From contig CALXRV010000011.1 of NCBI GenBank assembly GCA_944390945.1, forward strand, positions 37,977-101,976: a stretch of 64,000 nucleotides of DNA, read 5' to 3'. Made by a program: the position numbers and the translations under genes. Within the stretch, counting starts at the first letter, position 1. Every line of letters begins with the position of its first letter. The notes beneath the pieces were generated by a model. That model ran no database searches, was not told the DNA's origin, and was given only the letters and a program-made list of their open reading frames with translations. Of the stretch, positions 30,681 through 51,648 are shown in pieces. Source of the DNA: an uncultured Clostridia bacterium. Lineage in GTDB: Bacteria > Bacillota > Dehalobacteriia > UBA4068.

Positions 30681-31235
30681 TCAGACCGTATAGGGTTCGA
30701 TCTTTTTCGCCGCATCCAGGCCGAGCTGATATGCCTTGACATTCAGGTCTGCCACTTTCGCTTTGAAGTTACGGTGCAGAGATTCCACCATCGCATCAAA
30801 GGAAACCAGGTTCGCAATACCATTGATCACGCCCAACGCGACAACATTGGCAGAAAGCTCGCTGCCCATCGCTTCACGGCAAATCTCCGTAATCGGGCAA
30901 CGATAGATCTTCACGCCAGGGATCTCTTTACCCTTGCCCACTTCGCCATCAAGGATAAGAATGCCGCCGGGGATCAGATCCTTCGCATATTTATCATAAG
31001 CTTCCGGAGACATGCACAGCAGCAGGTTCGGATTTTCTACTTTCGGGAAAAGGATCGCCTGATCCGAAATATTCACCTCGGCACGGGTGGAACCGCCGCG
31101 GGATTCCGGGCCATATACCTGGCTCTGCGTGGCGTTGCTGCCATCGATCAAAGCGCCTTCAGCAAGGATGACCGCACCCTTGATGACGCCCTGTCCGCCG
31201 GTACCGCTCAAACGAATCTTCCATTTGGTAGCCAT
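30681..31235 (-). CDS. 2-oxoacid:ferredoxin oxidoreductase, gamma subunit
   Basis: MATKWKIRLSGTGGQGVIKGAVILAEGA...YGPESRGG is the gamma-subunit signature (Por/Vor/Kor gamma). Its ATG overlaps the beta stop (TAATG). Confidence 0.85.
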   Translation of the reverse strand: MATKWKIRLSGTGGQGVIKGAVILAEGALIDGSNATQSQVYGPESRGGSTRAEVNISDQAILFPKVENPNLLLCMSPEAYDKYAKDLIPGGILILDGEVGKGKEIPGVKIYRCPITEICREAMGSELSANVVALGVINGIANLVSFDAMVESLHRNFKAKVADLNVKAYQLGLDAAKKIEPYTV

Positions 31236-32053
31236 TATTTGTCCCCTCCCTGAACGCGTTCGCACAGCTTCGCATACTCTTCCGTATACTCTCTGCCTTG
31301 AGCCTCATGCAGGATGCCGGTGATATATTTGTCTTCCAGCTGTTCCGGCGTCATCTTCTCCGCGACAGCCTTAGCAACCGTATGATCTTTCACATACTGC
31401 ATCATGTCGGCAGGATTCGGAATCTTATTGCGGCGGCCATAGCTGATCGGGCAGGAAGCGATCACTTCGATCACAGAAAAGCCCTTATGCTTATAGCCAG
31501 CCACAATCAGGTCAGTCAGCTGCTTGGCATGATAGATATCACCACGGGCGACAAAGGAAGCACCAGCACCAATGGCGAGCTCGCAGAGATTGAAGCTCGG
31601 GTCAACAGAACCATAAGGCGCGGTGGTGGCCTTTTTGCCAAACGGTGTCAACGGCGAGAACTGACCGCCGGTCATGCCGTAAATGTTGTTGTTGATCACG
31701 ATCAACGTCATATCCATGTTGCGGCGGCAGGCATGGATAAAATGATTACCGCCGATGGCAGCGCAGTCGCCATCGCCAGAGAATACGAATACATCCATAT
31801 CCGGACGAGCCATCTTAGCACCCTGTGCAAAAGGCAAAGCACGACCATGCGCCGTATGCAACGTATTCAGATCCAGATAACCCGTGATGCGGGAAGAGCA
31901 GCCAATGCCGGAAACACCGATCACATTGTTTTTATCCAGCTTCAGTTCGTCCATGGCGCGGGCCCAGGCGCTCATCACAATGCCGTTACCGCAGCCAGCG
32001 CACCAGATATGGGGCAGGTTGTTGCGGAAATATTCCTGGTAAATGGGTTTCAT
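31235..32053 (-). CDS. 2-oxoacid:ferredoxin oxidoreductase, beta subunit (TPP-binding)
   Basis: WCAGCGNG...GIGCSS...SGDGD TPP/Mg-binding motif (VFVFSGDGDCAAIGGNH) and GMTGGQ. Confidence 0.9.
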   Translation of the reverse strand: MKPIYQEYFRNNLPHIWCAGCGNGIVMSAWARAMDELKLDKNNVIGVSGIGCSSRITGYLDLNTLHTAHGRALPFAQGAKMARPDMDVFVFSGDGDCAAIGGNHFIHACRRNMDMTLIVINNNIYGMTGGQFSPLTPFGKKATTAPYGSVDPSFNLCELAIGAGASFVARGDIYHAKQLTDLIVAGYKHKGFSVIEVIASCPISYGRRNKIPNPADMMQYVKDHTVAKAVAEKMTPEQLEDKYITGILHEAQGREYTEEYAKLCERVQGGDK

Positions 32054-33186
32054 TATTTCAGCACCTCCTTGACCATGTCGATAATCTCTTCCGGAATGAC
32101 CAGTTCACTGTCAACACGGCAGAGCTTCTTCACCGGCACGCTGCCGGCCACGATGCGTTCTACTTCACGCGCATACTGACCAAGATTCATTTCCGGCACG
32201 ATAACGGCTTTCTTGCCGGCGCAAGCAGCTTTGATGCGTTCCTCGTCGATCGGCCAAATCGTGATCGGACGGAAGAGACCGACTTTTACGCCTGCTTCAC
32301 GCAGTTCGTTCATTGCTTCCTGTGCGGAACGCGCCACACTGCCATAAGCGATCAACAGCACGTCGCAGTCGTCGACAAACAGTTCTTCGCATTCGAAGAT
32401 ATCCTTAACATTCTTTTCGATCTTATCCACCAAGCGGCGGTTGAATTTATCCACCACAGGCAGAGCGCTGGAATAGAAACCCTTTTCATTATGGGTCAGG
32501 CCGGTGAAGTGATAGCGATAGCCTTCACCAAAGCTTGCCATCGGCGGTACACCACCAGCAACGTTTTCAAACGGCACATAATCTTCCGGCGCGCAGGTCG
32601 GCTTTTCACGATTGATAATCTCGATTTCTTCATTCTCGTCGACCTCAAAACGCTCGCGCAGATGGCCGATCTCTTCATCCAACAGGAAAATAACCGGCGT
32701 ACGATATTTTTCCGCCAGATTGAAGGCTTTGATCGTCTGATAATATGTTTCCATCACGGAATTCGGCGCAATCGCGATGATGCTGTGGTCGCCATGGCTG
32801 CCCCAACGTGCCTGCTGGATATCACCCTGCGAAGAAAGGGTCGGCAAACCAGTGGAAGGACCCATACGCTGAACATCCACGAAAACGACAGGAATTTCTG
32901 TGATCGCGGCATAACCAACCAGTTCCTGCATCAGGGAGAAACCAGGGCCGCTCGTCGCCGTAAACGCTTTGGCGCCGGCAGCAGAAGCACCGATAATCGC
33001 GCCAGCAGAAGCAATCTCATCCTCCATCTGGATGAACCGTGCGCCACAGGCAGGCATCATCTCTGCCATATGTTCTGCGATCTCCGTAGAAGGAGTGATC
33101 GGATAACCAGCATAAAAGCTCGCGCCAGCTTTCAGAGCGCCCATTGCGCAAGCCTCATTCCCCTGTACGAGTCTTACTTTAGCCAT
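32053..33186 (-). CDS. 2-oxoacid:ferredoxin oxidoreductase, alpha subunit
   Basis: MAKVRLVQGNEACAMGALKAGASFYAGYPITPSTEI...ASAGAIIGASAAGAKAFTATSGPGFSLM are alpha-subunit domain I and III motifs. Confidence 0.9.
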   Translation of the reverse strand: MAKVRLVQGNEACAMGALKAGASFYAGYPITPSTEIAEHMAEMMPACGARFIQMEDEIASAGAIIGASAAGAKAFTATSGPGFSLMQELVGYAAITEIPVVFVDVQRMGPSTGLPTLSSQGDIQQARWGSHGDHSIIAIAPNSVMETYYQTIKAFNLAEKYRTPVIFLLDEEIGHLRERFEVDENEEIEIINREKPTCAPEDYVPFENVAGGVPPMASFGEGYRYHFTGLTHNEKGFYSSALPVVDKFNRRLVDKIEKNVKDIFECEELFVDDCDVLLIAYGSVARSAQEAMNELREAGVKVGLFRPITIWPIDEERIKAACAGKKAVIVPEMNLGQYAREVERIVAGSVPVKKLCRVDSELVIPEEIIDMVKEVLK

Positions 33187-33405
33187 TTACTCCGCCTCCT
33201 TTTCCGAAACCTCAACGCAGAAGTCCGGGCAATGCATCTCGCAATTTAAGCAGCCGATGCAGTTTTCCGGCTTAACCACCACGGCCTTACCATCCGGCGC
33301 CTGCGTAAACACGTTTTCCGGTTTACCGAGGCACAAACTGACGCAAATGCCGCAGGCCTTACAAAGCTTTGATATTACCTGAACATCATAACTCTTTTTG
33401 GCCAT
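33187..33405 (-). CDS. 2-oxoacid:ferredoxin oxidoreductase, delta subunit (2x[4Fe-4S] ferredoxin)
   Basis: 72 aa with two CxxCxxCxxxCP motifs (CKACGICVSLC and CIGCLNCEMHCP). SD AAGGAGG. Confidence 0.85.
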   Translation of the reverse strand: MAKKSYDVQVISKLCKACGICVSLCLGKPENVFTQAPDGKAVVVKPENCIGCLNCEMHCPDFCVEVSEKEAE

Positions 33406-33519
33406 AAAACTCTGATTCCTCCTTAACTGAATTAAATAAAAACTTAAATACTAAGTCTGAAATCACATTATTTTTGCAGCCAAAACTATCACCAGCCCGT
33501 AAAAACTGGCATCGGTTTC

Positions 33520-33550
33520 ATTATAGCACAATATATGTGCGGATGTAAAT
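33520..33550 (-). promoter_or_regulatory. Promoter for the oxidoreductase operon: -35 TTTACA, 19-nt spacer, extended -10 TGcTATAAT
   Basis: Minus-strand reading gives ...TTTACAtccgcacatatattgTGcTATAATg... about 105 nt upstream of the delta-subunit ATG. Confidence 0.55.
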
Positions 33551-33562
33551 TGCCGAATATTA

Positions 33563-33592
33563 AAATTATTCCACAAAAGCATGGACGCGACG
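33563..33592 (-). terminator. Rho-independent terminator ending the hydrogenase operon (GGACGCGACGTT tata AACGTCGCGTCC, then CTTTT on the minus strand)
   Basis: 12-bp perfect palindrome immediately after the maturation-protease stop. Confidence 0.6.
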
Positions 33593-34087
33593 TTATAAAC
33601 GTCGCGTCCTGATGTCAACAATCATAGTCGCCAACTGATCGATGGCTGCCAGCATTTCCGGGCAAGGTGATGTGGCAAATTCCATTTCGCCAGGCTGAAT
33701 ACCGACCACCAGTACAGCACAGCCGGTCTCCGAAGACAGATAATCCAACATCACATGCAGGGGCAGCATATGCGTCGAGCAGCCCATTCCGTCTATTTCT
33801 GCCGGGTCGCAACAGCGCATCGTCCCGACTTCACCGCCGACATGGGCAGCATCAACCAGCAGCAACAAATCTGGCTTAAAGTGGCGAATCATGCCTGTAA
33901 AATTCTCCGGCGCCGTGCTCCCTGCCAGCAGCAAGCAGTCCGCATCCTCGGCCAGTTGCATACGCAAACGCTCGATCAGCACCATTCCGGCGGCATCATC
34001 ACCGCAGAGCTCTGACCCCACGCCTAGAATGGCAATCCTGGGCGCAGCAGTCAACATTTCTTTTAACTGTTCCTGCCAGCCGATCAT
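33593..34087 (-). CDS. [NiFe]-hydrogenase maturation endopeptidase (HycI/HyaD family)
   Basis: IAILGVGSELCGDDAAGMVLIERL...LLVDAAHVG matches the hydrogenase-protease signature, including the conserved metal-binding Asp/His region. Confidence 0.8.
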   Translation of the reverse strand: MIGWQEQLKEMLTAAPRIAILGVGSELCGDDAAGMVLIERLRMQLAEDADCLLLAGSTAPENFTGMIRHFKPDLLLLVDAAHVGGEVGTMRCCDPAEIDGMGCSTHMLPLHVMLDYLSSETGCAVLVVGIQPGEMEFATSPCPEMLAAIDQLATMIVDIRTRRL

Positions 34088-34443
34088 AGCTTAACCTTCA
34101 ATGCTTCTCGGCTCATGTCTGCCAATTCAATATTCGGCGTAAAGGAAAGGCAGCCCTTTCTGCAACTGTCCACGCATTGCGCGCAGAAGATGCAATGCCC
34201 CAAATTCAGATGGCATTCAAACTTCTTCTCTTCTTTTGTCCCTACATTAACGATGCTGATCGCGCTGGCGGGACAATCACGCACGCAGAGATTGCAGCCG
34301 ATACAATCGTCCGCATTATACTGTATTTTTCCCCGATAATGCGGTTCAATCTCCAGCTTTGCCGCAGGATATGCGATCGTCGCCGGTTTTTTCAGCAGAT
34401 GCTTCAATGCAAAGCCGGCGATCCTGCCGGGTGAACGTTTCAT
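34084..34443 (-). CDS. Hydrogenase 2x[4Fe-4S] ferredoxin subunit (NuoI/EchF/MbhN-like)
   Basis: CIGCNLCVRDCP and CIFCAQCVDSC motifs in a 119-aa protein inside the hydrogenase operon. Confidence 0.8.
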   Translation of the reverse strand: MKRSPGRIAGFALKHLLKKPATIAYPAAKLEIEPHYRGKIQYNADDCIGCNLCVRDCPASAISIVNVGTKEEKKFECHLNLGHCIFCAQCVDSCRKGCLSFTPNIELADMSREALKVKL

Positions 34444-35378
34444 CAGGCAAGCACCCCTTTCAGCAGCAGATTGGCAATGATCTGGATCAATGCCAGCGGC
34501 GTTAAGTATTTCCAGCAGAAAGCGACCATCTGCTCAATCCGCACACGCGCCATAATCGAACGCAACAATGCAAGGATAAAGAGAATGACCAGCGTCTTTA
34601 GAATGTATACCCCAAACCCTGCCCATGCGCCTGCCGGATAAAAAGGCAGAAACACGGCGGAGATCAGCGATGCGACCACCACCAGTTCGCAGTCAATCGC
34701 CATGCGGAAAATGGCATAAAGACGGCCGCTGTATTCCACAAACGTGCCGCCAGCCAGCTCTGTCTCAGCCTCTGGCAGATCGAACGGCACGCGCTCCAGT
34801 TTACCCTGGCAAGCGATGACCGCCACCAGAAATGCCGGAATGTTGATCAGCAGATACAGCGGATGCGTGCTGTAATAGGCCGTCATCCCGGAAAGGGACC
34901 AACTATCCGCCAGCAATGCCGGCGCCAGCAGGGCCATGAACAGCGGTACCTCATAGGAAAAGAGCTGCGTCAATGCACGCACTGCGCCAATCGTGGCATA
35001 AACACTGGTGGAATACCAACCAGCCAGGAAAAAGCATAGCGTAGGCAGCGTCAGCAGATAAAGCAGTACGATCAAATCCCCTTCAAATGGATACAATGAA
35101 GTGGAGGACCAGATCGGGATATAGAGATAAGCCGCGGTAACGGCAGCCAGCGCCATCACCGGCAGGAAAACAAATACTCGTTTATCCGCATGCTCCGGGA
35201 TGATGGTCTCCTTCCCCAGCAGCTTCAGAAAGTCAGCCAGCGGCTGATACCAGCGTGGGCCACGACGGTTCTGCAGCCTGGCATACAGCTTACGGTCGAT
35301 AAAGGAAAAGACCAAAGCATATGCGCCCAGAAACAGCATGCCCGGGAAAATCAGAATATGAAATAATGCTAACAGCAT
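34443..35378 (-). CDS. Hydrogenase membrane subunit (NuoH/EchB/MbhM-like)
   Basis: 311-aa polytopic protein. LQNRRGPRWYQPLADFLKLL is the NuoH-family signature. Confidence 0.8.
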   Translation of the reverse strand: MLLALFHILIFPGMLFLGAYALVFSFIDRKLYARLQNRRGPRWYQPLADFLKLLGKETIIPEHADKRVFVFLPVMALAAVTAAYLYIPIWSSTSLYPFEGDLIVLLYLLTLPTLCFFLAGWYSTSVYATIGAVRALTQLFSYEVPLFMALLAPALLADSWSLSGMTAYYSTHPLYLLINIPAFLVAVIACQGKLERVPFDLPEAETELAGGTFVEYSGRLYAIFRMAIDCELVVVASLISAVFLPFYPAGAWAGFGVYILKTLVILFILALLRSIMARVRIEQMVAFCWKYLTPLALIQIIANLLLKGVLA

Positions 35379-35398
35379 AATATCCCTTCCTTCCGATG

Positions 35399-36616
35399 CT
35401 AGCGGATAATCTTCCGCTCCGCAATCTTGATCTTCGAGGCATCAAATCCCTGTTTCTTGTAGTGCTCTATGCCGTAACGGCGCAACGCTGCCCAATCCCA
35501 GACACGCTCGCCTGCGGCGGAACGCAGCACGATCGAGCGGTCCGTGCAAGAATAGCAGGGGTCAATGGCAGCGATGATAATCGGCACATCCGCCAGATAA
35601 TCACCCTCCAGCATATGCTTTACGCTGTGCCAGTTCGCCTCCGAAGCCGCACGCACGCGCACACGGTCCGGTTTATCCGTACCATTCGCACGGACATAAT
35701 GCGTATCTTCACCGCGCGGCGCTTCTGTCCGGCTGAACACTTCCCCTTCCGGAATCCGCCGCGGCATCTTTGCCGTCAGTTCGCCGTCAGGCAGATTATC
35801 CAGCGACCAGCGGATCATTTTAATGCTCTCCATGATTTCCAGCACACGCACAACAGCACGGCCGAACACATCGCAGTGGTCATCCGTAATCGCAGTCACC
35901 GGCACTTCGTCATAAGCTGCATACTTGTCGATCACACGAATATCCGTATCAACATTGGAAGCGCGCGAGACCGGACCAACTGCGCCCAGACGCAAAGCAT
36001 CCTCATGCGAAAGCTTACCGATCCCGGACAGACGCGCCGCCAATGTGGTCTCGCTCAATGCAAGCTGAATATAATATTTATTCTGCTCCTCAACGATATC
36101 CAGCATGGCACGGATCTCGTCCGCCATCTGCGGTTCCAGGTCGCGGCGCACACCGCCCAACGTATTGATGCCGTAATTCACGCGGTTCCCGCCCAGCTCT
36201 GCCAGGATATCGAGCACCTTTTCCCGGTCGCGCCAAGAATACATGAATAAGGTATCAAAGCCAATCTCATGAGCAGCCACGCCAAGCCAGAGCAAATGGC
36301 TGTGCATGCGCTCCAACTCTGCCATGATGACGCGGATATAAGCGGCACGACGCGGAATCTCCACACCGGCCAGTTCTTCTACCGCCTGGCAAAATGCAGT
36401 GCTGTGCGTATGCGAGCAAATCCCACAAACGCGCTCAATGATATACAGGTCCTGAATATAGGTACGGGCTTCACAAGCCTTTTCCAGACCACGGTGGTTA
36501 TAGCCAACGCCAACCACGGCATTGACCACCTTTTCGCCCTCCAGCGTAATCGTAAAGCAGCCCGGCTCTTTCAGCGAAGGGTGCTGCGGTCCGATCGGTA
36601 TCGTGATCTTGCTCAT
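35399..36616 (-). CDS. Group 4 [NiFe]-hydrogenase large (catalytic) subunit (NuoD/EchE/MbhL-like)
   Basis: N-terminal Ni-binding RVCGICSHTHSTAF (CxxC) and C-terminal DPCYSCTDR (CxxC) motifs. Confidence 0.9.
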   Translation of the reverse strand: MSKITIPIGPQHPSLKEPGCFTITLEGEKVVNAVVGVGYNHRGLEKACEARTYIQDLYIIERVCGICSHTHSTAFCQAVEELAGVEIPRRAAYIRVIMAELERMHSHLLWLGVAAHEIGFDTLFMYSWRDREKVLDILAELGGNRVNYGINTLGGVRRDLEPQMADEIRAMLDIVEEQNKYYIQLALSETTLAARLSGIGKLSHEDALRLGAVGPVSRASNVDTDIRVIDKYAAYDEVPVTAITDDHCDVFGRAVVRVLEIMESIKMIRWSLDNLPDGELTAKMPRRIPEGEVFSRTEAPRGEDTHYVRANGTDKPDRVRVRAASEANWHSVKHMLEGDYLADVPIIIAAIDPCYSCTDRSIVLRSAAGERVWDWAALRRYGIEHYKKQGFDASKIKIAERKIIR

Positions 36617-37131
36617 TGCTCATCCTCCTTTTGCGCAGCTTCCGGCGCAGGCGGATTATACGTCATCGTATTGCGGTCGAAATACTCAACCTTCCATTCC
36701 TTGCGCAGCGGGTAGTTCCCTTCCGGCCAACCATCCGGTAACGGATAGCTGGGGCCAGGCGGCAGCTCTTCCACTTGGGCGCCAAACAGATCCACCAGTT
36801 CACGTTCATGCCATAAGGCATTCGGAAAACGGGAACAAACCGATTTGATCACGGGTTTGGCTTTTGGCGCCTTCTGCTTGACCAGTAAAATGACATTATC
36901 ATCGTTGGAAATGGCGTAAATAAATCCCAAATTCTCTCCGTCATCCACCCCGATCACCAGATGAAAGGTATTGAAGCCGCCTTCAGTAGTCAGAAAGGCG
37001 AATACCTTTTCAAAATCGCGGCGCACCAGCGGATCCATGATAACGCGCTGACGGCGCTGCAGATGCACATAGCCGTCGAGCACCGGGAAACGCTCCAATA
37101 TCATATCAACGACTTTCTGTTCAGCCTGCAT
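36613..37131 (-). CDS. Hydrogenase subunit NuoC/EchD/MbhK-like (30-kDa-subunit family)
   Basis: 172-aa protein with the NuoC fold signature (ERELVDLFG). It overlaps the large-subunit gene by 4 nt. Confidence 0.75.
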   Translation of the reverse strand: MQAEQKVVDMILERFPVLDGYVHLQRRQRVIMDPLVRRDFEKVFAFLTTEGGFNTFHLVIGVDDGENLGFIYAISNDDNVILLVKQKAPKAKPVIKSVCSRFPNALWHERELVDLFGAQVEELPPGPSYPLPDGWPEGNYPLRKEWKVEYFDRNTMTYNPPAPEAAQKEDEQ

Positions 37132-37145
37132 CGATTATCCCTCCC

Positions 37146-37610
37146 CTACTGTTCCGACGGCTCGGCCTTTTGCGCGGCCTCCAGAGCGGAGAGCAGCTTG
37201 ACCACGGCGTCTATGATCGCTTCCGGCCGTGCAGCGCAGCCCGGCACATAAGCGTCGACCGGTATGACGGAATCGATGCCGCCACTCACACAGTAGCAGC
37301 CATCAAAGATGCCGCCGGTGCAGGCACAGGTACCTACAGCCACCACAAATTTCGGCTCTGGCATTTGTTCATAAATCTGTTTCAGACGATCCCGCGTCTG
37401 CAGGGTAACGGCACCCGTGCAAACCAACACATCTGAATGGCGCGGCGTCCCCTGCTGCAGAATGCCGAAGCGCTCCAGATCATAGCGGGGGGTTAGCGCA
37501 TCCACGACTTCGATATCACAGCCATTGCAGGCGCCGGCATTAAAATGAATGATCCACGGCGATTTGCGGCGCCCCCAATCCACCGCGCGTTCCAAAATAT
37601 TTTTCGCCAT
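37146..37610 (-). CDS. Group 4 [NiFe]-hydrogenase small subunit (NuoB/EchC/MbhJ-like)
   Basis: Proximal-cluster cysteines CNGCDIE...GTCACTGG...C. 154 aa. Confidence 0.85.
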   Translation of the reverse strand: MAKNILERAVDWGRRKSPWIIHFNAGACNGCDIEVVDALTPRYDLERFGILQQGTPRHSDVLVCTGAVTLQTRDRLKQIYEQMPEPKFVVAVGTCACTGGIFDGCYCVSGGIDSVIPVDAYVPGCAARPEAIIDAVVKLLSALEAAQKAEPSEQ

Positions 37611-37613
37611 AAT

Positions 37614-37934
37614 TTACCTCCGGAAGATGATCAGCAGCGCCAGCACGCCGGCAGCCACATATAACAATGGCAACGTCAGCGCATCAGCCGGTGCGGTGGC
37701 CACGACAAGCACCAAAACGTGCATTACGGTGAAGAAAAAGGCATACGGATAAAATTGCCCGTAATCCGGCACAACATTATGCGTCACATTCCGCTGGCCG
37801 CAGGCATAAGATTCCAGCTTGCGCTGGCTATCCTTACCCGGCGCAGCAAGCGAGGCTGCCAGATAGGAGAGGATCAGGCCCACCAACAGCAGCACGAGCA
37901 GCGCCAGCGGCGGCGAAAGCAAGATCTGCGTCAT
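37614..37934 (-). CDS. Small membrane subunit, NuoA-like (MbhI-like)
   Basis: 106 aa, 3 TM. KLESYACGQ resembles the NuoA ExYECG motif. Confidence 0.55.
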   Translation of the reverse strand: MTQILLSPPLALLVLLLVGLILSYLAASLAAPGKDSQRKLESYACGQRNVTHNVVPDYGQFYPYAFFFTVMHVLVLVVATAPADALTLPLLYVAAGVLALLIIFRR

Positions 37935-37948
37935 AACAATTTTCCCTC

Positions 37949-38257
37949 CTAACCGTTCAGTCTATTCAGCTTGCGGATATCCAGATCGCCATTGTGCCGG
38001 TAAATGCGGATGGCAATACCCGCCGCCACTACGGCTACGACGACCTCGATCACGATGACAGTGACGATAAAAGCCTGCGGCAGCAACTCGCTGCCATTGA
38101 TATATCCGGCCAGGATCAGCAGCAGCGTAATCGCCTTCATCACGATCTCCACCGCAATGATGATGCGAATCAGATTATTTGTCCGCACCAGCATGAACAA
38201 GCCAGTAACGATCAGCAGAAACGCTGTAACCAGCATGGCCATAGTCAATGTATTCAT
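37949..38257 (-). CDS. MrpC/MnhC/NuoK-like membrane subunit
   Basis: 102 aa, 3 TM, with an MrpC-like sequence (LIRIIIAVEIVMKAITLLLI...). Confidence 0.7.
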   Translation of the reverse strand: MNTLTMAMLVTAFLLIVTGLFMLVRTNNLIRIIIAVEIVMKAITLLLILAGYINGSELLPQAFIVTVIVIEVVVAVVAAGIAIRIYRHNGDLDIRKLNRLNG

Positions 38258-38754
38258 GCCTTATCACTCTCCTTGAACAGGATTGCCACGGCAAAAGCGC
38301 CAGCCAGGATCACGATGATCTGGCCCAGAACATCCGCCTGACGCATATTCCACAACACATCCTTAAAGCTCAAGCCCACCAGCGCAGCATTGGCCTGCGG
38401 CTCGATATGGAAACCGGTCGCCGCAATCACTACCATCAGCATCATGCCGGTTGCAATCAAAATAAACGGCAACCCCGCCACACGTTTACGGTGTTCCTCC
38501 TCGTTCTCCGGCTGATGGCGCGAGGTGGAAGTCAGGCTGATCGCGCTGGCAAAAACAACCGTAACCAAACCGGCACAGACCGAAAGCTCAAATAAAGCTG
38601 CCCAGGTTGCTCCCATTAGATAAAGGACACAGGCGAGCAATGCGCTGACCACGGCCAAGGAAACGGCACATTTCAGCATGCTGCGAAACATGGCACAGGC
38701 GATGGCGGCGATCACGATGAAAGCTAGACAGATGAGCAAAATCGTTTCGTTCAT
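38254..38754 (-). CDS. MrpB-like membrane subunit
   Basis: 166-aa, 4-5 TM protein in the Mrp module. Overlaps neighbours by 4 nt. Confidence 0.55.
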   Translation of the reverse strand: MNETILLICLAFIVIAAIACAMFRSMLKCAVSLAVVSALLACVLYLMGATWAALFELSVCAGLVTVVFASAISLTSTSRHQPENEEEHRKRVAGLPFILIATGMMLMVVIAATGFHIEPQANAALVGLSFKDVLWNMRQADVLGQIIVILAGAFAVAILFKESDKA

Positions 38755-38769
38755 ATCACCACACCTCCC

Positions 38770-40242
38770 TTAAAGCAGGCCCTGCGCCTGCAGGATCTGC
38801 AGCAGAACAGGGAACAGCAGACCGACAACAACGGTAACGGCAGAAAGCGCAACCGCAGAAACAGCAATGCCGCCGCGTGCTTCCTTAACCGTGCTAAGAT
38901 GCTCTTCCACCGGGCCAAAGAACACCTTCCGCTGCAGGCGGAGAAAATAAGCAGCCGTAAGGATACTGGCAACCAGAGCGATTCCCGCGATCAGCGGACC
39001 GCCAGCCTGCCAGGCTGCAATAATGATCAACAACTTGCTCCAGAAACCGGCCAGCGGCGGAATGCCCGCGGTGGAAAGAAAGGCAAGTACGCTGGAAACC
39101 CCAGTCACCGGCATCTGCTTCTGCAAGCCCCCCAGACGTTCAATCTCTGTCGTACCGGTCTGGCGTTCCACAGCAGCGGAATTGACGAACAGGGTTGTTT
39201 TGAAGGTGGCATGGTTAAAGAAGTGCAGCACCGCACCGATCAAGCCGATCATGCTGCCGGTGGAAGCGCCAAGCACGATATAGCCGATCTGGCTAATGCT
39301 GGAATAGGCAAGGATCCGCTTGAAATCCCCCTGCGCAATCGCAGCCAGCGCACCCATAACGATAGAAAGCAGCCCCAGCAACATGAAGGCCAGGTTGATC
39401 ACCGAATAAGTACCCAGCAGGAAATCGCTCATGATGCGGATGATCGCATAAACACCGGCCATTTTGGTCACGATGCCACCCAACACAACCGAAACAGGTG
39501 CCGGCGCGCTCTGGTAGGCGTCAGGCAGCCAGCCGTGGAACGGCACAATACCGGATTTGATGGAAAAGCCTGCGATCAGGAACAGGAATGCCAACCAGAT
39601 CAGCATTGGCTCTGCAGCGGTATTGCCTGCCAACATCTCAGCCACAGCGTCATAACGCAGGCTGCCCGTCTCCATATAGATAAAGGACAAGCCGGCCAGG
39701 ATAAACGCGGAAGCAACAGCGCTCATCACCAAATATTTGAATGAACCTTCCAGTCCGATGATATCGCGATGCAGCGCAATCAAGACAAAACTGGCGATAC
39801 CGGTGATTTCAAGGAATACATAAAGCGAGAAAAGATCCGTTACCAATGCGATGCCTGACATCCCCAGAACCAGGATGAGCATCACATTCGTATAATTGAA
39901 CATCTTTTCTTCCCGCATGCCGGCAGCAGTCAGGAAAGAAGCGGCTGTCACCATACCGATGCAGAACAGCACGATCGCCGAAATGGCATCCACAGAGAAA
40001 TACGCAGCCTCCGTGGAAACGCTCATATCCCAGAACTGGGAAAAATTGACCGCCGCCTTGTTATACTGCAACAGCAGGAGCATCGTGATTACCGAAGTCA
40101 CGGCCTGCACCACCCCGACCGCACAGCCGATGGGGGCGCAGAACTTTTCCATATGCTTTTTGCCAATCAGATTCAGCACCACGATGGCAAGCAGGGGAAA
40201 TCCGATGTACGTATAGATCAGGGATGTAAAGGATGCGGACAT
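38770..40242 (-). CDS. Antiporter-like subunit (MrpD/NuoN/MbhH-like)
   Basis: 490-aa polytopic protein of the NuoL/M/N superfamily. Confidence 0.8.
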   Translation of the reverse strand: MSASFTSLIYTYIGFPLLAIVVLNLIGKKHMEKFCAPIGCAVGVVQAVTSVITMLLLLQYNKAAVNFSQFWDMSVSTEAAYFSVDAISAIVLFCIGMVTAASFLTAAGMREEKMFNYTNVMLILVLGMSGIALVTDLFSLYVFLEITGIASFVLIALHRDIIGLEGSFKYLVMSAVASAFILAGLSFIYMETGSLRYDAVAEMLAGNTAAEPMLIWLAFLFLIAGFSIKSGIVPFHGWLPDAYQSAPAPVSVVLGGIVTKMAGVYAIIRIMSDFLLGTYSVINLAFMLLGLLSIVMGALAAIAQGDFKRILAYSSISQIGYIVLGASTGSMIGLIGAVLHFFNHATFKTTLFVNSAAVERQTGTTEIERLGGLQKQMPVTGVSSVLAFLSTAGIPPLAGFWSKLLIIIAAWQAGGPLIAGIALVASILTAAYFLRLQRKVFFGPVEEHLSTVKEARGGIAVSAVALSAVTVVVGLLFPVLLQILQAQGLL

Positions 40243-40256
40243 TCAAATCACCCCTT

Positions 40257-42140
40257 TCATATCAATAGCACGAATAACAATACCAGGAAAGCAAGGCCAA
40301 TGAAAGAACGCACCATGTAACCGGCCACGTCCCCGGTATTGAAATTCTTCAGCGACTGCGAGAAAAAGCTGGTCAGACGGACAAGCAGCACATCGTAGAT
40401 CCAGTTGATGGCGCGGTCAATGCAATAGCAGAGCCAGGCATAGATACGGACAAATACCATCAGGATATCAAACGGATCAAAATAATGCTGTTCCGCGCAG
40501 TGATAAAGCTGACGCAGGCCGGGCGCATAATGGATATGATCCACCGCCTTAATCCCTTCACCGGTCATCCGGTAACCAATGATATGGTTGATAATCGCCA
40601 GCAGCAACACAGCAAGGGAAATCAGAACCAGCGTCATCGAATGCGGCCAACCGGCGAAATCTTGTCCGGCCAACGTATCACCAAGCAAGGGTTGGATCAT
40701 ATCCAGCGGCAGCCGGTTCCAGACGCCGAACACGACGCAGGCAGCTGCCAGCACGACCATCGGCAGCAGCATAGCGGCAGGCGCTTCCCGGACATCTTCT
40801 TTTTTCACATCATCCGGCAATTTGGTCGGGCCGAAGAAAGCCGCATGGCCAAGTTTCAGGAAAGAAGCCGCGGTCATGAAGGCGCCGACAACGGCAATCA
40901 CATAAAATACCGTGTGTGACTCGATCGCCGCATCAAACACCAATTCCTTGGAAAAGAAACCGTTGAACGGCGGTACGCCGGCAATGGAAAGCGCCGCGAT
41001 GATAAAGCATAACCCGGTCAGCGGCATCATCTTGCCCAAGCCACCGACACGCTTCAGATCCGTCGTGCCAGTTGCCCGTTCGATCGCACCGGCGGAAAGG
41101 AAGAGGCAGCATTTATACAGGGCATTGTTTACCATATGGAATAACCCGCCGACAATACCCACGGGAAGTGCGGTACCGATGCCGAGTATCATATAGCCGA
41201 CCTGGCTGATCGCATGGAAAGAGAGCAGGCGCTTCATATCTTTCTGAATCAATGCCATCGACACGGCAAAGAACAGCGTAACCGCACCGATAATCATCAC
41301 CACCAGGCTCATCGTGCTGCCAGGCTGCAGATCATAAAAATCAAGCACGATACGGGTCAGCAAATAAATGCCTAGCATTTTCTCCAGGGCTGCGGGCAAC
41401 AGCGCCATGAAGGGCAGCGGTGCATCATTTGCTGCATCTGGGATCCAGCTGTGGAATGGCATAGACCCCGCTTTGCCGATCGCGCCAGCCAACATGCAGA
41501 GGAAGCCAACCGCACCAATGCCGCTTACCGACAGATCGTTGACCGCATCCATCATCATGGTACCTGCGTGCATGCAGGTCATTGCGATGCCCAGCATCAG
41601 CAGCAAATCGGCCGTACCGCTGAGCACGATCGCCTTCACTGCCGTCCGCACATTATCCTTGTTAACCAACACCAGCATGCCAAACAGGGAAACCAGCAAG
41701 CCTTCCCAGAAGAAGAGCATGACCACAAAATTGTTGGCCAAAAAAGCACCGTTGGCCAGCGCCAGCGTCAGCAGATAGTAGAAGAAGAACTGACCGGCAT
41801 ATTCTTTCCGCCGCAGGAAGGAAACGCTATAAAGGCCGACCAGAAAGACGATGATCGCCGCGGCAATGACGATAAAGCGGGAAAAATCATAGATGCGCAG
41901 CGCCAGATTAATCTCGAATCCCGCCCAGGGAATCAGCATTGTGGCATCCGGCGCGCGGAACACACCAAAGGCAAAGATCAAATTGGCCACGACCGCCAGA
42001 ACAAATACACCGGCCTTCGCCGCATAACTTTGTTTCGGGATCGCCAAGCAAAGCAGCGCCAATACAAAGGGGAGCAGTATCATCACATAAAGCAGGTTCA
42101 TACCGCTGCCTACAGTCAAGAAAGCTGAGATACCGTTCAC
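40257..42140 (-). CDS. Antiporter-like subunit (MrpA/NuoL-like), GTG start
   Basis: 627-aa NuoL-family protein. GTG start with GGGGAGGTGG SD. Confidence 0.8.
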   Translation of the reverse strand: MNGISAFLTVGSGMNLLYVMILLPFVLALLCLAIPKQSYAAKAGVFVLAVVANLIFAFGVFRAPDATMLIPWAGFEINLALRIYDFSRFIVIAAAIIVFLVGLYSVSFLRRKEYAGQFFFYYLLTLALANGAFLANNFVVMLFFWEGLLVSLFGMLVLVNKDNVRTAVKAIVLSGTADLLLMLGIAMTCMHAGTMMMDAVNDLSVSGIGAVGFLCMLAGAIGKAGSMPFHSWIPDAANDAPLPFMALLPAALEKMLGIYLLTRIVLDFYDLQPGSTMSLVVMIIGAVTLFFAVSMALIQKDMKRLLSFHAISQVGYMILGIGTALPVGIVGGLFHMVNNALYKCCLFLSAGAIERATGTTDLKRVGGLGKMMPLTGLCFIIAALSIAGVPPFNGFFSKELVFDAAIESHTVFYVIAVVGAFMTAASFLKLGHAAFFGPTKLPDDVKKEDVREAPAAMLLPMVVLAAACVVFGVWNRLPLDMIQPLLGDTLAGQDFAGWPHSMTLVLISLAVLLLAIINHIIGYRMTGEGIKAVDHIHYAPGLRQLYHCAEQHYFDPFDILMVFVRIYAWLCYCIDRAINWIYDVLLVRLTSFFSQSLKNFNTGDVAGYMVRSFIGLAFLVLLFVLLI

Positions 42141-42141
42141 A

Positions 42142-43569
42142 TTACCACCTCCCCATAGATTCTACAATAAAGGAAACCAGGCCGGATGGAATATTAATGA
42201 AGATGCCGGCCAGCAGAGAAAGCAGCCCAAGGAGCGCAACGGAAGAGACCATTTCCCAACTGCCTTCCTTCAGGTCAGGATGCGTCAGCTTGCCGAAGAA
42301 GACCTTGACATAAACGCGCAGCAGATAGATGACCGTCATCACCGCACCTGCGATGAACACCGGTGCCATCCAAGGCACACCGCTCTGTACCGCGCCGTTG
42401 ATCACCATGTATTTGGAGAAGAAACCACCAAAGGGCGGCAGTCCCATTACGGAAAAAGCACACAACGCAAAGGATACCGCTGTCACCGGCAAACGCCTAG
42501 CCAGGCCGGCCATCTGACGAATATCCTTTGTATGCGTGCTATGTTCAACAATACCGGCGCAAAGGAAGAGACCACCCTTGGCCAGCGAATGCATCAGAAT
42601 ATAAAGCAACCCACCGGCAGCGCCGACCATCGTGCCACAGGAAAGGCCAAGCAGGATGAATGCCAGCTGACTGACGGTAGAATATGCAATGATCCGTTTG
42701 ATATCGTTTTCCACCAATGCCGCCCCGGCGGAAACCAGCGCAGATACTGCGGCAATCGCCGGCACCGCAACCTCCCAGACCGGCTCCAGCTGGAAATTGA
42801 CCAGGAACAGACGCGCATAGACATAAACACCGATCTTCACCAGCACCGCAGCATGGAGCAGCGAGGTGACCGGAGACGGCGCAACGCCAGCATCCGGCAG
42901 CCAGGAATGCAGCGGTACAGTGGCGGATTTGGAGAGGATACCAAAGAGGATCAGAACCATGATCCAGTTATCCAGACCGCGGCCACGCAGTTCCATCAGA
43001 TCAAAGGTTCCCGCCTGGATGTAGATTGCGATAAAACCAACCAGCATCAGCAAAGCACCGCCTACTGTCACCAGGAAAGCCTTATCCGCACGGAGCACAA
43101 TATCCTTTTTGCGGTAAAAGCCAATCAAGCGCCAGCAGCAAACGGCGGAAATTTCCCAGAAACCGTAGATCAGGATCAGGTTGGTGGAGAACACCAGCCC
43201 CATCATCGCGCCAATAAACAGCACGACCATCATATAATACTCGTTCTGGTTATCATAATGCTCAATATAACCAAACGAATAAAACACGATAATCGCCGCC
43301 ACCAAAGACGATGTCAGCGCCATAAAAACGGCCAGGCCATCAGCAAAGAAACCAATGCTCATGCCCAGCGGCAGCTCCAACCGCCATAGCAGCAGTTCGC
43401 CAGCAAGCGCCTGCGGCAGCGCAAATGCAGCCGCGATGAAAGCGGTCAAGACGAACAGCAGGGCTGCGATGTTCCGAATGCCGGTGCTAATCCTACCCAA
43501 AATGGGTAATAGGAAAGCGCCCAGCAGAGGAACGAAAATGCAGACAAGCAAAACTCCTGAACCCTCCAT
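42142..43569 (-). CDS. Antiporter-like subunit (MrpD/NuoM-like); first gene of the hydrogenase operon
   Basis: 475-aa NuoM-family protein. SD GAAGGAGAGAAAGGA. Confidence 0.8.
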   Translation of the reverse strand: MEGSGVLLVCIFVPLLGAFLLPILGRISTGIRNIAALLFVLTAFIAAAFALPQALAGELLLWRLELPLGMSIGFFADGLAVFMALTSSLVAAIIVFYSFGYIEHYDNQNEYYMMVVLFIGAMMGLVFSTNLILIYGFWEISAVCCWRLIGFYRKKDIVLRADKAFLVTVGGALLMLVGFIAIYIQAGTFDLMELRGRGLDNWIMVLILFGILSKSATVPLHSWLPDAGVAPSPVTSLLHAAVLVKIGVYVYARLFLVNFQLEPVWEVAVPAIAAVSALVSAGAALVENDIKRIIAYSTVSQLAFILLGLSCGTMVGAAGGLLYILMHSLAKGGLFLCAGIVEHSTHTKDIRQMAGLARRLPVTAVSFALCAFSVMGLPPFGGFFSKYMVINGAVQSGVPWMAPVFIAGAVMTVIYLLRVYVKVFFGKLTHPDLKEGSWEMVSSVALLGLLSLLAGIFINIPSGLVSFIVESMGRW

Positions 43570-43704
43570 TCCTTTCTCTCCTTCTCATGTATGATAAAGG
43601 CCAAAAACCATGTGAACACGCAAAAAGACCGCTATACACCCGCAGCTGTGAGAAATCAGGCAAGCGTTATAGCTAAAAATACATGACCATATAACCTATT
43701 TACC

Positions 43705-43733
43705 ATTATAATACAACAGCAGATAACTTGCAA
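43705..43733 (-). promoter_or_regulatory. Consensus promoter for the hydrogenase operon: -35 TTGCAA (43733-43728), 17 nt, -10 TATAAT (43710-43705)
   Basis: Minus-strand reading gives TTGCAAgttatctgctgttgtatTATAAT about 135 nt upstream of the first ATG. Confidence 0.6.

Positions 43734-49213: not shown

Positions 49214-51648
<2,435 letters not shown>

Follow-up and report, generated by a model that had tools for sequence, protein, structure and literature searches.

What kind of enzyme is encoded by a compact, co-oriented gene cluster of an uncultured Clostridia bacterium, and does the oxidoreductase encoded beside it belong to the same system? A sequence-only reading of the window (the whole 64,000-nt stretch analysed here) had proposed a Pyrococcus-type membrane-bound hydrogenase (Mbh) linked to an adjoining 2-oxoacid:ferredoxin oxidoreductase (OFOR). 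Our analysis confirms the observation and partly supports its interpretation. [quoted passage not shown] The locus is real, but it is one further member of a very widespread family and nothing new. All 12 genes, like the four OFOR genes, have strong family matches; in the direction of transcription, the hydrogenase operon comprises:

43705-43733, minus: promoter-like site TTGCAA-17-TATAAT, a consensus match only, in a 327-nt AT-rich gap before the operon
42142-43569, minus: antiporter-like subunit 1, 475 aa, NuoL/MrpA N-terminal/HyfD type (PF00361 4.5e-69, and PF00662)
40257-42140, minus: antiporter-like subunit 2, 627 aa, full-length NuoL/HyfB type (PF00361 E 8.8e-54)
38770-40242, minus: antiporter-like subunit 3, 490 aa, NuoN/M/MrpD/HyfF type (PF00361 1.9e-70; TIGR01770 NuoN 267 bits)
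38254-38754, minus: NuoJ-like subunit, MbhD/MbsD-related, 166 aa (PF00499 36.9 bits, cut-off 33.2)
37949-38257, minus: NuoK/MrpC/MbhG-like subunit, 102 aa (PF00420 4e-19)
37614-37934, minus: NuoA/ND3-like subunit, 106 aa (PF00507 25.7 bits, cut-off 23.3)
37146-37610, minus: hydrogenase small subunit, NuoB/HycG type, 154 aa (PF01058 2.4e-32; 42% identity to HycG)
36613-37131, minus: NuoC-like subunit, 172 aa (PF00329 1.7e-18)
35399-36616, minus: [NiFe] large subunit, 405 aa (PF00346 5.6e-64, and PF00374)
34443-35378, minus: NuoH/HycD/MbhM-like membrane subunit (PF00146 6.5e-77)
34084-34443, minus: NuoI-like 2x[4Fe-4S] subunit, 119 aa (TIGR01971 94 bits; Fer4 families; two CxxCxxCxxxC motifs)
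33593-34087, minus: HycI-type maturation endopeptidase (PF01750 3.8e-14; TIGR00142 107.7 bits; TIGR00072 93 bits, cut-off 47)

By gene content, the 11 structural subunits correspond one for one to those of minimal complex I: a peripheral arm of NuoB/C/D/I type, a connecting module of NuoH/A/J/K type and three antiporter modules of NuoL/M/N type. The D subunit (the large subunit) retains its NiFe-binding motifs, with both of the CxxC pairs previously noted present in L1 (RVCGICSHTH; C64, C67) and L2 (DPCYSCTDR; C354, C357). These four cysteines are invariant in 16 aligned family members, the second pair lying within the peptide pattern that retrieved the related loci. Forty-five residues follow L2, forming a C-terminal extension that aligns with that of HycE and is presumably cut off by HycI. 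The small subunit carries the hydrogenase-type cluster motif CNGC (CxxC), whereas complex I has CC, and the NuoC-like and large-subunit genes are unfused, yielding two proteins. Against solved structures, the large subunit scores 298 bits with MbhL (6cfw_L) and 286 bits with HycE (7z0s_E), ahead of Nqo4 (216 bits), supporting the predicted group 4 assignment. Identity is 43% to MbhL, about 40% to HycE (39% by BLASTP), 38% to HyfG (BLASTP) and 52% to a Bathyarchaeota protein from an Hfo-type (Fpo-like hydrogenase) gene cluster; by identity, the Bathyarchaeial Fpo-like type is among the closest relatives.

In the membrane arm, TM5 Glu, TM7 Lys and TM12 Lys are kept in all three antiporter-like subunits and are identical in 10 aligned loci from other lineages; the NuoL-like genes are not pseudogenes. 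Subunit 1 has no C-terminal extension. Subunit 2 contains a NuoL-type lateral helix (residues 556-600) followed by a last transmembrane helix (TM16, 605-626), as supported by HMM coverage, an AF2 model and Foldseek. NuoL HMMs span this protein end to end (NF005141, 14-625 against 2-611 of 615), it aligns with Mycobacterium smegmatis NuoL (52-624 against 53-623), and its model (pLDDT 87.3, pTM 0.84) aligns over its full length to NuoL/ND5/MrpA (TM 0.74-0.80). Among PDB chains, the NuoJ-like subunit matches MbsD (1.2e-4), MbhD (2.7e-4) and NuoJ (0.05), while the NuoK-like subunit, which retains both membrane Glu residues, matches MbhG (2.8e-13) and NdhE (1.6e-12). In the NuoA-like subunit, a YACG(Q/E) loop is conserved and the motif PDYxQFFPFAFFFT occurs; the subunit's family profile retrieves only ND3/NuoA chains from the PDB (best E 0.0022, nearly full-length), and hhalign pairs it with Escherichia coli NuoA (E 2.8e-4). 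By ORF coordinates, neighbouring genes of the operon either overlap or are separated by 20 nt or less and therefore leave no space for additional small genes, in keeping with the absence of MrpE/F/G-like subunits reported from sequence.

The locus is larger than first described. Operon and OFOR had been recognised, but a full set of hyp maturation genes immediately upstream of the hydrogenase operon (43897-49565, minus strand) was overlooked. The hyp genes thus lie at one operon end and hycI at the other:

49203-49565, minus: hypA, Ni-insertion metallochaperone (PF01155 E 1e-25; start refined to ATG at 49565)
48548-49213, minus: hypB, Ni-insertion GTPase (PF02492 E 2.9e-22; start refined to ATG at 49213, GGAGG upstream)
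46275-48551, minus: hypF, carbamoyltransferase (TIGR00143 813.7 bits, cut-off 466)
46053-46274, minus: hypC, chaperone (TIGR00074 57.2 bits, cut-off 48)
44965-46056, minus: hypD (PF01924 E 6.5e-134)
43897-44907, minus: hypE (TIGR02124 444 bits, cut-off 252)

How rare is such an enzyme? It had been called uncommon in Firmicutes, which the distribution contradicts: among at least 594 matching stretches, the best 80 species-representative genomes were taken as related loci, and 36 of these 80 are Bacillota/Clostridia (taxon as given in the records). In at least 55 of these genomes, which come from more than 10 phyla, the 12 genes stand in the same order; 57 loci have enough sequence to reach from ant1 to hycI, and 55 of them hold the full set in this order. 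Conservation from Bacillota to Omnitrophota, Planctomycetota, Elusimicrobiota, Spirochaetota and others argues for a single co-assembled machine. In other phyla, the operon's neighbours repeatedly include genes whose products make or consume ion gradients: 10 loci have a membrane pyrophosphatase beside it, and 5-6 have F-type ATP synthase genes. The family is very widespread among uncultured anaerobes, with Christensenellaceae, Oscillospiraceae, Acutalibacteraceae and gut and digester MAGs common among the record names. Clostridial 'group 4g' enzymes are highly expressed in the rumen (PMC6776011), although none from subgroup 4g is reported to have been characterised (PMC7886697); we found no biochemical study of any family member in the literature. 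These 'group 4g' enzymes and the MAG hydrogenases of the literature may belong to the same family as the window enzyme.

The OFOR genes were placed upstream in the title of the sequence-only reading; in the direction of transcription they lie downstream, as its text had it:

33583-33609, minus: terminator-like 12-bp hairpin overlapping the hycI stop codon (consensus scan)
33520-33549, minus: promoter-like site TTTACA-18-TG-TATAAT ahead of the OFOR (11/12 consensus matches)
33187-33405, minus: OFOR delta, 2x[4Fe-4S] ferredoxin-like (Fer4 families; best NCBIfam OorD, 50.8 bits, under cut-off)
32053-33186, minus: OFOR alpha (NF006412, an NCBIfam equivalog, 564.5 bits, cut-off 411)
31235-32053, minus: OFOR beta, TPP and [4Fe-4S] binding (PF02775 3e-35; GDGD and CxxC motifs)
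30681-31235, minus: OFOR gamma (PF01558 6.5e-34; start refined to ATG at 31235, 1-nt overlap with the beta stop codon)

The hairpin (33609-33583) folds at -22.8 kcal/mol (z = -4.1) with a short, weak U tract, and comparable hairpins directly follow hycI in the two closest relatives, L002 and L004. Promoter-like sites are consensus matches only and are as frequent as in shuffles (13 found, 12 expected). Because the hairpin and a promoter-like site lie between hycI and the OFOR, and 4.3 kb separate the two in L002, they do not form one operon; as proposed, the OFOR seems to be transcribed on its own. Among the related loci, it neighbours the hydrogenase only in L002 and L004, and a further OFOR lies on the opposite strand in L073. 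The link between the two is therefore no family property; the OFOR is a lineage-specific neighbour, outside the hydrogenase enzyme. Its alpha subunit, the sole one above a curated cut-off, falls in a generic family and matches 1yd7_A (397 bits) and the 2-oxoglutarate synthase 8ys5_A (290 bits), while beta fits best to KorB-type NF007207 (310 bits, below the cut-off of 364). By these similarities, the OFOR is probably KOR-like, nearest to 2-oxoglutarate synthase/KOR-type enzymes. Elsewhere in the window, genes for a Liv-type amino-acid ABC transporter and a PaaK-like ligase fit an amino-acid fermentation giving 2-oxoacids and reduced ferredoxin.

What, then, does the hydrogenase do? Such hydrogenases in MAGs have been proposed to evolve H2 from ferredoxin with ion translocation (PMC8542988, PMC6349859). 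We consider this the most likely role of the complete, maturation-competent enzyme described here, and hold it with moderate confidence. Neither the operon nor any related locus with a full operon encodes a formate dehydrogenase, CODH, NuoEFG or HycB/HyfA-type subunit, so that the NuoI-like subunit, the probable entry point for ferredoxin electrons, would have to be fed by a soluble carrier such as ferredoxin. Reduced ferredoxin would dock at this short 2x[4Fe-4S] protein, and electrons would run via the single small-subunit cluster to the NiFe site, where protons would become H2. Only a little free energy would be released; in the presumed layout of the membrane arm, the H/A/J/K module would relay it to the antiporter-like subunits for H+ transport or H+/Na+ exchange across the membrane, and the resulting gradient could feed ATP synthesis. 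The NiFe centre would be built and processed by hypABFCDE and hycI, and the KOR-like OFOR could plausibly supply reduced ferredoxin, with electrons from 2-oxoglutarate or from other 2-oxoacids that derive from amino acids. The energetics speak against H2 evolution and are awkward. At low H2 pressure, electron transfer from ferredoxin to H+ yields ~20-40 kJ per H2, about 1-2 ions' worth, whereas the window enzyme has three antiporter modules and the H/A/J/K channel, the equipment with which complex I moves 4 H+ for ~80 kJ.

This puzzle would disappear if the same enzyme ran in reverse, a direction proposed for the Eha/Ehb enzymes of methanogens, in which an ion gradient drives H2 to reduce ferredoxin uphill: a reaction of this kind would be well served by many ion channels for each electron pair. 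The adjacent OFOR, closest to 2-oxoglutarate synthase/KOR-type enzymes, would then take up the reduced ferredoxin and act as a biosynthetic 2-oxoacid synthase. The large subunit's 52% identity to the Hfo-type protein points the same way, since the gradient-driven direction from H2 to ferredoxin has been argued for the Bathyarchaeial Hfo (PMC7886697). However, the OFOR appears to be separately transcribed and is absent beside the operon in most relatives, and the window context suggests amino-acid catabolism. The lineages in which the family is frequent are, moreover, generally seen as fermenters needing an H2 outlet. We regard reversal as a serious rival, although the less likely of the two directions.

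A Hyf-type (hydrogenase-4-like) formate hydrogenlyase, with the genes for its formate dehydrogenase and its HyfA-type partner at another genomic site, would account for the HycI-type protease, the identity to HycE and HyfG, and the best matches of antiporter-like subunits 1, 2 and 3 to E. coli HyfD (35% identity), HyfB (30%) and HyfF (33%). Yet no HyfA/HycB-type subunit or fdhF occurs in the operon or any of the 80 related loci, and a bootstrapped NJ tree leaves the family outside the Hyc/Hyf clade (100%); with NuoC and the large subunit unfused, this makes the proposal very doubtful. Equally improbable is a Na+-exporting, Pyrococcus-type Mbh (HydDB group 4d) with a Mrp-type sodium module. Among solved structures, the best matches are MbhL for the large subunit and MbhD/MbsD and MbhG for the NuoJ- and NuoK-like subunits, but about 55 clusters at 50% identity outscore MbhL against the large-subunit query, the Mbh clade (92% bootstrap) excludes the family, and no MrpE/F/G or MbhF equivalent is encoded, nor is there room for one. 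We consider a non-hydrogenase, that is, an 11-subunit complex-I-like or Ehr-type oxidoreductase with another electron acceptor, extremely unlikely: the inventory, NuoD HMM scores slightly under cut-off (328 against 360 bits) and a sister lineage that has the same operon and has lost the NiFe ligands would suit it, but the invariant NiFe cysteines, C-terminal extension, adjacent hycI and full hyp set, and hydrogenase-type small-subunit motif do not.

Among known systems, the window hydrogenase, with 11 structural subunits, is much larger than six-subunit Ech, as the first reading recognised. Its likening to Mbh does not hold. Mbh combines one antiporter-like subunit with a MrpE/F/G/B-type Na+ module, whereas the window enzyme has three antiporter-like subunits, one of them NuoL-type with a lateral helix, and a NuoA/ND3-like subunit. 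Despite the pairing of its antiporter-like subunits with those of Hyf, it differs from Hyc/Hyf in that its NuoJ-, NuoK- and NuoA-like components are also separate proteins. In its set of subunits it matches 11-subunit complex I, from which it is set apart by a D subunit that keeps the NiFe motifs.

Every gene between positions 30681 and 49565 lies on the minus strand, and the hydrogenase locus within this block is real and complete. Its parts are listed in transcription order, where ant1, ant2L and ant3 are antiporter-like subunits, single letters are Nuo-type subunits and OFOR is a 2-oxoacid:ferredoxin oxidoreductase.

Features of the hydrogenase region
49565 to 43897, minus strand: hypA-hypB-hypF-hypC-hypD-hypE maturation cluster, a complete set directly upstream of the hydrogenase operon, listed with refined gene starts
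Between the hyp cluster and the hydrogenase operon, minus strand: AT-rich gap of 327 nt with a promoter-like TTGCAA-17-TATAAT at 43733-43705
43569 to 33593, minus strand: 12 contiguous hydrogenase genes in the order ant1-ant2L-ant3-J-K-A-B-C-D-H-I-hycI
Operon products 1 to 3: three PF00361 antiporter-like proteins (475, 627 and 490 aa)
Operon product 4: NuoJ/MbhD-like protein (166 aa)
Operon product 5: NuoK/MrpC-like protein (102 aa)
Operon product 6: NuoA-like protein (106 aa)
Operon products 7 to 12: NuoB-type small subunit, NuoC-like protein, large subunit, NuoH-like protein, NuoI-like 2x[4Fe-4S] protein, HycI-type protease
Between hycI and the OFOR genes: gap of 187 nt
33405 to 30681, minus strand: four OFOR genes
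Downstream of the OFOR: SAM methyltransferase and tgt, the last genes in transcription order

Neighbouring genes within the 12-gene set overlap or are separated by no more than 20 nt. The sequence-only reading had listed these genes and the OFOR, and its inventory and coordinates are right in every item, with strong family matches for the products. Its title placed the OFOR directly upstream of the hydrogenase; in the direction of transcription the OFOR lies downstream, as its own text has it. The hypABFCDE cluster adjoins the operon and falls outside the interval that had been described, and no rRNA or tRNA genes occur in the 64-kb window.

The large subunit combines PF00346 and PF00374, and both Ni-binding CxxC pairs claimed for it can be read directly in its L1 (RVCGICSHTH) and L2 (DPCYSCTDR) motifs. 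It continues for 45 residues beyond L2, and this C-terminal extension can be aligned with the corresponding one in E. coli HycE, where HycI cuts it off. The small subunit carries a CNGC motif of the hydrogenase type, and the two remaining cysteines of its cluster are also in place. When the large subunit was ranked against solved structures, P. furiosus MbhL (298 bits) and E. coli HycE (286 bits) came ahead of complex I Nqo4 (216 bits), which settles the assignment to group 4 and, with the motifs and domains, upholds the earlier classification as a group 4 [NiFe] hydrogenase. Other marks of the group in the operon are the short NuoB-type small subunit with a single [4Fe-4S] cluster and the NuoH-type and antiporter-type membrane subunits. 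A quinone-type NuoD of respiratory complex I does not fit: the score against the NuoD HMM is 328 bits at a cut-off of 360, the NiFe ligands are present, and the small subunit has CNGC rather than tandem cysteines. Nor is this an Ech enzyme (group 4e), which has six subunits with one antiporter-like EchA; the 11 structural subunits found here agree with the earlier statement that the complex is larger than Ech. In two group 4 large-subunit relatives (P0331 and P0334, 936-937 aa), an insertion of ~540 residues lies inside L1, between CGI and the second Cys, and resembles an intein that interrupts the NiFe-binding site.

The best E. coli partners of the three antiporter-like subunits are HyfD (35%), HyfB (30%) and HyfF (33%). 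The TM5 Glu, TM7 Lys and TM12 Lys are conserved in all three, both in the window and in 10 aligned loci from other lineages, so these genes are not decayed copies, and the key residues are intact in the NuoL-like genes whose possible pseudogene status had been raised. The 627-aa subunit matches NuoL models end to end, with M. smegmatis NuoL aligned over 52-624. In its AlphaFold model (42 homologues, pLDDT 87.3, pTM 0.84), residues 556-600 form one 45-residue helix and residues 605-626 the final transmembrane helix, and Foldseek aligned the model over its full length to NuoL, ND5, NdhF and MrpA (TM 0.74-0.80) and to MbhH over only ~520 columns. The model shows a NuoL-type subunit with a predicted lateral helix. 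Five relatives of this subunit (P0193, P0207-P0209 and P0214) are ~1000-1094 aa long, the named ones being from Margulisiibacteriota; this is the length that a fusion of the first two antiporter-like subunits would have.

Among the smaller membrane proteins, the NuoK-like protein retains both membrane glutamates, and the NuoJ-like protein matched MbsD and MbhD in the PDB at ~1e-4 and NuoJ at 0.05. The 106-aa NuoA-like protein stands narrowly above the Pfam NuoA threshold and gave only noise-level matches in a single-sequence PDB search. A 20-member family profile of this subunit retrieved ND3/NuoA chains only (best E 0.0022, nearly full-length), and its YACG motif lines up with the (F/Y)ECG loop of ND3/NuoA. 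The NuoA-like assignment, like that of the J subunit, appears weak but consistent. None of the 12 products matches MrpE, MrpF, MrpG or the MbhF-type sodium module, and the contiguous genes leave no spare ORFs and no room for more, in line with the absence of MrpE/F/G-like subunits noted earlier. Judged by family matches, the inventory is that of the complex I core, all 11 subunits and no others, and the D subunit still has its NiFe site.

Relatives were collected by a large-subunit scan of one genome per GTDB species, which returned at least 594 encoded relatives, and the best 80 of these at least 594 loci were examined. All 80 come from metagenome-assembled genomes (MAGs); no cultured carrier is found among them, and the named members of the sequence cluster are likewise only MAGs. 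The closest large subunit among the matches listed, at 81% identity, belongs to an uncultured Peptococcaceae bacterium. By record title, 36 of the 80 best loci (of at least 594) are Bacillota, including Peptococcaceae, Syntrophomonadaceae, Christensenellaceae, Oscillospiraceae, Acutalibacteraceae and others; with at least 594 relatives in species-representative genomes, the description of such operons as uncommon in Firmicutes does not hold. The other lineages among the best 80 include Omnitrophota, Planctomycetota, Elusimicrobiota, Spirochaetota, Bipolaricaulota, Margulisiibacteriota, Kiritimatiellia, NC10, Myxococcota and more. The locus belongs to a known and very widespread kind, and metagenome papers already annotate such clusters.

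Gene order is strongly kept: 55 of the 57 loci long enough to span ant1-hycI (among the best 80) have the full 12-gene set in the same order, and the other two differ by local swaps only. An upstream hypFCDE directly before the operon is a Bacillota trait (~17 loci). In other phyla, Omnitrophota and Planctomycetota among them (L056, L067, L068 and more), the operon has as its neighbour either a membrane H+/Na+ pyrophosphatase, in 10 loci, or F-type ATP synthase genes, in 5-6 loci. Beyond hyp, membrane pyrophosphatase and ATP synthase, no partner gene recurs in the related loci, dehydrogenases included. ATP-synthase c subunits adjoin the operon in only two relatives, with motifs that are ambiguous or H+-like.

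The OFOR next to the window operon has an alpha subunit (POR_N/PFOR_II), a TPP-binding beta subunit with Cys ligands, a gamma subunit (POR) and a delta subunit (2x[4Fe-4S]), and it carries the TPP and Fe-S motifs. With 564.5 bits, the alpha subunit clears the cut-off of 411 set for the generic equivalog NF006412, '2-oxoacid:acceptor oxidoreductase subunit alpha', and the best solved relatives of the enzyme are P. furiosus 1YD7 and the 2-oxoglutarate synthase 8YS5. The enzyme resembles KOR/OOR-type OFORs, of which Helicobacter OorDABC is a four-subunit example, in its delta-alpha-beta-gamma order, its motifs and its best database and PDB matches, but its beta, gamma and delta subunits, best matched by KorB, OorC and OorD types, score below the equivalog cut-offs. 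Our best guess at its substrate is 2-oxoglutarate.

This OFOR had been described as having its own promoter after a terminator. A 12-bp GC-rich hairpin does lie over the hycI stop codon (-22.8 kcal/mol, z = -4.1 against shuffles), followed 34 bases on by TTTACA-18-(TG)TATAAT (11/12 matches) and by AAGGAGG before the OFOR delta start; the U tract is short, and promoter-like sites in the region, consensus matches only, are not enriched (13 found against 12 expected from shuffles). Among relatives with enough flank, the two closest likewise carry a strong hairpin just past hycI. Taken together, the hairpin, the promoter-like site and the hairpins of the two relatives make it likely that the OFOR is transcribed separately from the hydrogenase.

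Only two loci, L004 and L002, have an OFOR near the hydrogenase on the same side (among the best 80 of at least 594). It begins 225 nt after hycI in L004, with a hairpin and a promoter-like region between, and lies 4.3 kb from the hydrogenase with intervening sequence in L002. In a third locus, L073, an OFOR lies upstream of the hydrogenase in the opposite orientation, and no OFOR adjoins the operon in relatives of 74% identity or less with 10 kb of flank. Since the OFOR is confined to a few close relatives, the short chain put forward by the sequence-only reading, in which 2-oxoacids would reduce ferredoxin and ferredoxin would yield H2, is plausible for the window lineage and is not a conserved coupling. 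Independently, an Asgard contig (Promethearchaeota, L090 15840-18867) carries a four-subunit POR-type OFOR ~4 kb from a related A-B-CD-H-I block, a second case of an OFOR near such a hydrogenase.

Because no dehydrogenase module occurs in the operon of any relative, a soluble low-potential carrier, for example ferredoxin, would have to feed the NuoI-like subunit. The window encodes a Liv-type amino-acid transporter and a PaaK-like ligase, which fit amino-acid fermentation, and an operon placed beside a membrane pyrophosphatase or ATP synthase fits a chemiosmotic role. On these two lines of context we favour ferredoxin-driven, ion-translocating H2 evolution as the probable function, and the functional idea of the earlier reading is a reasonable one. 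The main difficulty is energetic. By established redox values, electron transfer from ferredoxin to H2 yields ~20-40 kJ per H2 at low H2 pressure, enough for 1-2 ions, set against the full four-channel set of complex I. Only some antiporter modules might pump, or some might exchange H+ for Na+, as in Mbh.

A third way out is that the enzyme works mainly in reverse, with H2 and the ion gradient reducing ferredoxin and so allowing H2-driven 2-oxoacid synthesis by the OFOR. This direction is accepted for Eha/Ehb. Gradient-driven ferredoxin reduction with H2 was also proposed for Hfo by Loh et al. (PMC7886697). The reversed direction would suit the KOR-type OFOR next door and would resolve the energy shortfall of an arm with three antiporter-like subunits and H, A, J and K; the amino-acid-fermentation context and chemiosmotic neighbours point to H2 evolution, and we regard reversal as a real rival, though the less likely direction. 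For the organism, H2 evolution would suggest a route from amino-acid-derived 2-oxoacids to ferredoxin and H2 with some energy conserved, a chain that matters for the H2 balance of digesters and guts.

Elsewhere in the window, the content of 2216-9421 (plus strand) suggests an amino-acid-degrading lifestyle. A 1349-aa ORF at 10786-14835 (plus strand) joins a carbamoyl-phosphate synthase large subunit to a C-terminal diaminopimelate epimerase (PF01678, 1226-1342) and is either a CarB-DapF fusion or the product of a lost stop codon. A lysine riboswitch (97 bits; 20912-21079, minus strand) lies directly upstream of an NhaC-family Na+/H+ antiporter-type gene at 19168-20829 (minus strand), which probably encodes a lysine-regulated transporter. 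At 58506-60074, two long ORFs of 416 and 520 aa overlap on opposite strands and have no Pfam match.

Respiratory complex I is considered to descend from group 4 hydrogenases, of which the PDB sequence searches matched only two: Mbh, which has a single antiporter-like module, and the FHL of E. coli. The present family is a widespread bacterial one (at least 594 relatives) with a complete 11-subunit complex-I layout that still makes or uses H2, and it bears both on how a reaction of low free energy drives a three-antiporter arm and on the origin of the complex I quinone site. Nothing here would surprise a specialist. We found no biochemical study of any family member in the literature.

The most interesting lead outside the window is a sister lineage (94% NJ bootstrap) whose large subunits lack the NiFe ligands, P0289 having RLCGPGSCAQS and DLHYFGSGR in their place. 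Two sister operons, L088 2740-12235 and L089 2713-12208, come from two samples, one of them a Hadza human-gut metagenome. Their large subunit shows 50% identity, and their 11 genes keep the same order and encode products of almost unchanged length, 475, 628, 497, 166, 102, 104, 157, 176, 405, 309 and 116 aa; hycI was not found in either contig. By gene order and motif loss they look like an Ehr-type derivative of the window-type operon. In a more far-reaching view, the family would be a living hydrogenase with a full complex-I body (11 subunits, three channels, lateral helix), and the sister would capture the step from hydrogenase to non-hydrogenase in a single operon architecture. As ferredoxin-to-H2 transfer cannot pay for four pumped ions, such an enzyme would have an unusual or variable ion stoichiometry or would act mainly as a gradient-driven ferredoxin reductase for the 2-oxoacid synthase. 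We think this whole proposal unlikely to hold.

To place the family, we searched the PDB, NCBIfam and a library of 1.84 billion representative proteins and built a Kimura-distance NJ tree of large subunits (200 bootstraps), a distance tree only, with low support at deep nodes. The whole family forms one 50% cluster in the library (662 bits), the next cluster scoring 466 bits. Identities to the window large subunit are as follows.

Identity of other large subunits to that of the window
Anaerolineales cluster: 55%
Methanoregula cluster: 55%
Bathyarchaeota cluster: 52%
Asgard cluster: 48%
MbhL: 43%
HyfG: 41%
HycE: 40%
NuoCD: 29%

The tree supports the family at 98%, the Mbh clade at 92% and the Hyc/Hyf clade at 100%, and in none of its 200 bootstraps does the family join exclusively with Mbh or Hyc/Hyf. 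Grouping the family with the Methanoregula clusters has 24% support, which falls to 10% when the Bathyarchaeota and Asgard clusters join. The Bathyarchaeota relative (L086, 52%) sits in an A-B-CD-H-I-J-K-L-M-N cluster, which is nuo order and the layout of Hfo; the Asgard relative (48%) sits in an A-B-CD-H-I block that agrees with published Asgard enzymes. Hfo of Bathyarchaeia was called the first hydrogenase with 11 Fpo/Nuo subunits and is classed by HydDB as 4g (Loh et al. 2021, PMC7886697), and Asgard archaea have complex-I-like group 4 hydrogenases with a lateral helix (PMC11291895). Subgroup 4g is polyphyletic (PMC13582414) and loosely defined, and none of its enzymes had been studied biochemically (PMC7886697). 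Omnitrophota and Cloacimonadota clusters have been annotated as 'group 4g, Mrp-linked' (PMC8542988), an Mrp-Mbh that lacks an oxidoreductase module is described from Saganbacteria, with relatives in 'Pelobacter propionicus and Clostridia' (PMC6349859), and clostridial 4g enzymes are highly expressed in the rumen (PMC6776011). From one observation, that Omnitrophota MAGs carry the window-type operon, we infer that the enzymes of these last three papers belong to the same family.

E. coli Hyf/Hyc (4a; Hyc PDB 7Z0S) shares with the locus three antiporter-like subunits, pairing 1:1 with HyfB, HyfD and HyfF, a HycI-type protease and the HycE-like C-terminal extension. Neither a HycB/HyfA-type Fe-S subunit nor a formate dehydrogenase is encoded in the operon itself or in its 80 relatives; unlike Hyf/Hyc, the locus thus has no HyfA/HycB or FdhF, its NuoC is unfused to the large subunit, its J-, K- and A-like subunits are separate, and it falls outside the 100% Hyc/Hyf clade, so a formate hydrogenlyase is very unlikely. 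Pyrococcus furiosus Mbh (4d; PDB 6CFW), which the locus had been said to match, also lacks a dedicated dehydrogenase module, with ferredoxin the likely donor in both; it has the NuoB/C/D/H/I-type core, and for three subunits the top match among solved structures is an Mbh protein (MbhL, MbhD or MbhG). The 14 subunits of Mbh include only one antiporter-like protein, MbhH, together with the MbhA-C/F sodium module. The locus lacks such a module, encodes three antiporter-like subunits, one of them with a NuoL-type lateral helix, as well as a NuoA-like subunit, and lies outside the 92% Mbh clade of the distance tree; identity with group 4d Mbh was therefore rejected.

A minimal 11-subunit complex I (Nuo/Ndh-1/Fpo-like, no input module) has the same 11 subunit kinds, an A-B-C-D-H-I block, conserved proton-channel residues and the lateral helix. 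The locus differs from it in having a NiFe site instead of a quinone pocket in the D subunit, CxxC instead of CC in the B subunit, and maturation genes. Closest in kind are Hfo and the Asgard enzymes, which share with the locus the 11 Nuo/Fpo subunit kinds with NiFe ligands retained, the absence of a NuoEFG/FpoF input module and of the Mrp Na+ module, and an L-type antiporter subunit with lateral helix. In contrast to them, the window family is bacterial, carries hycI inside the operon, keeps NuoC and the large subunit as separate proteins, and departs from the Hfo/nuo/fpo order by a permutation that sets the three antiporter genes, J and K before A-B-C-D-H-I. Together with the cluster identities and NJ supports, this shared architecture indicates that the locus probably belongs, as a bacterial representative, to the complex-I-like '4g' enzymes, a loosely defined group, rather than to Mbh.
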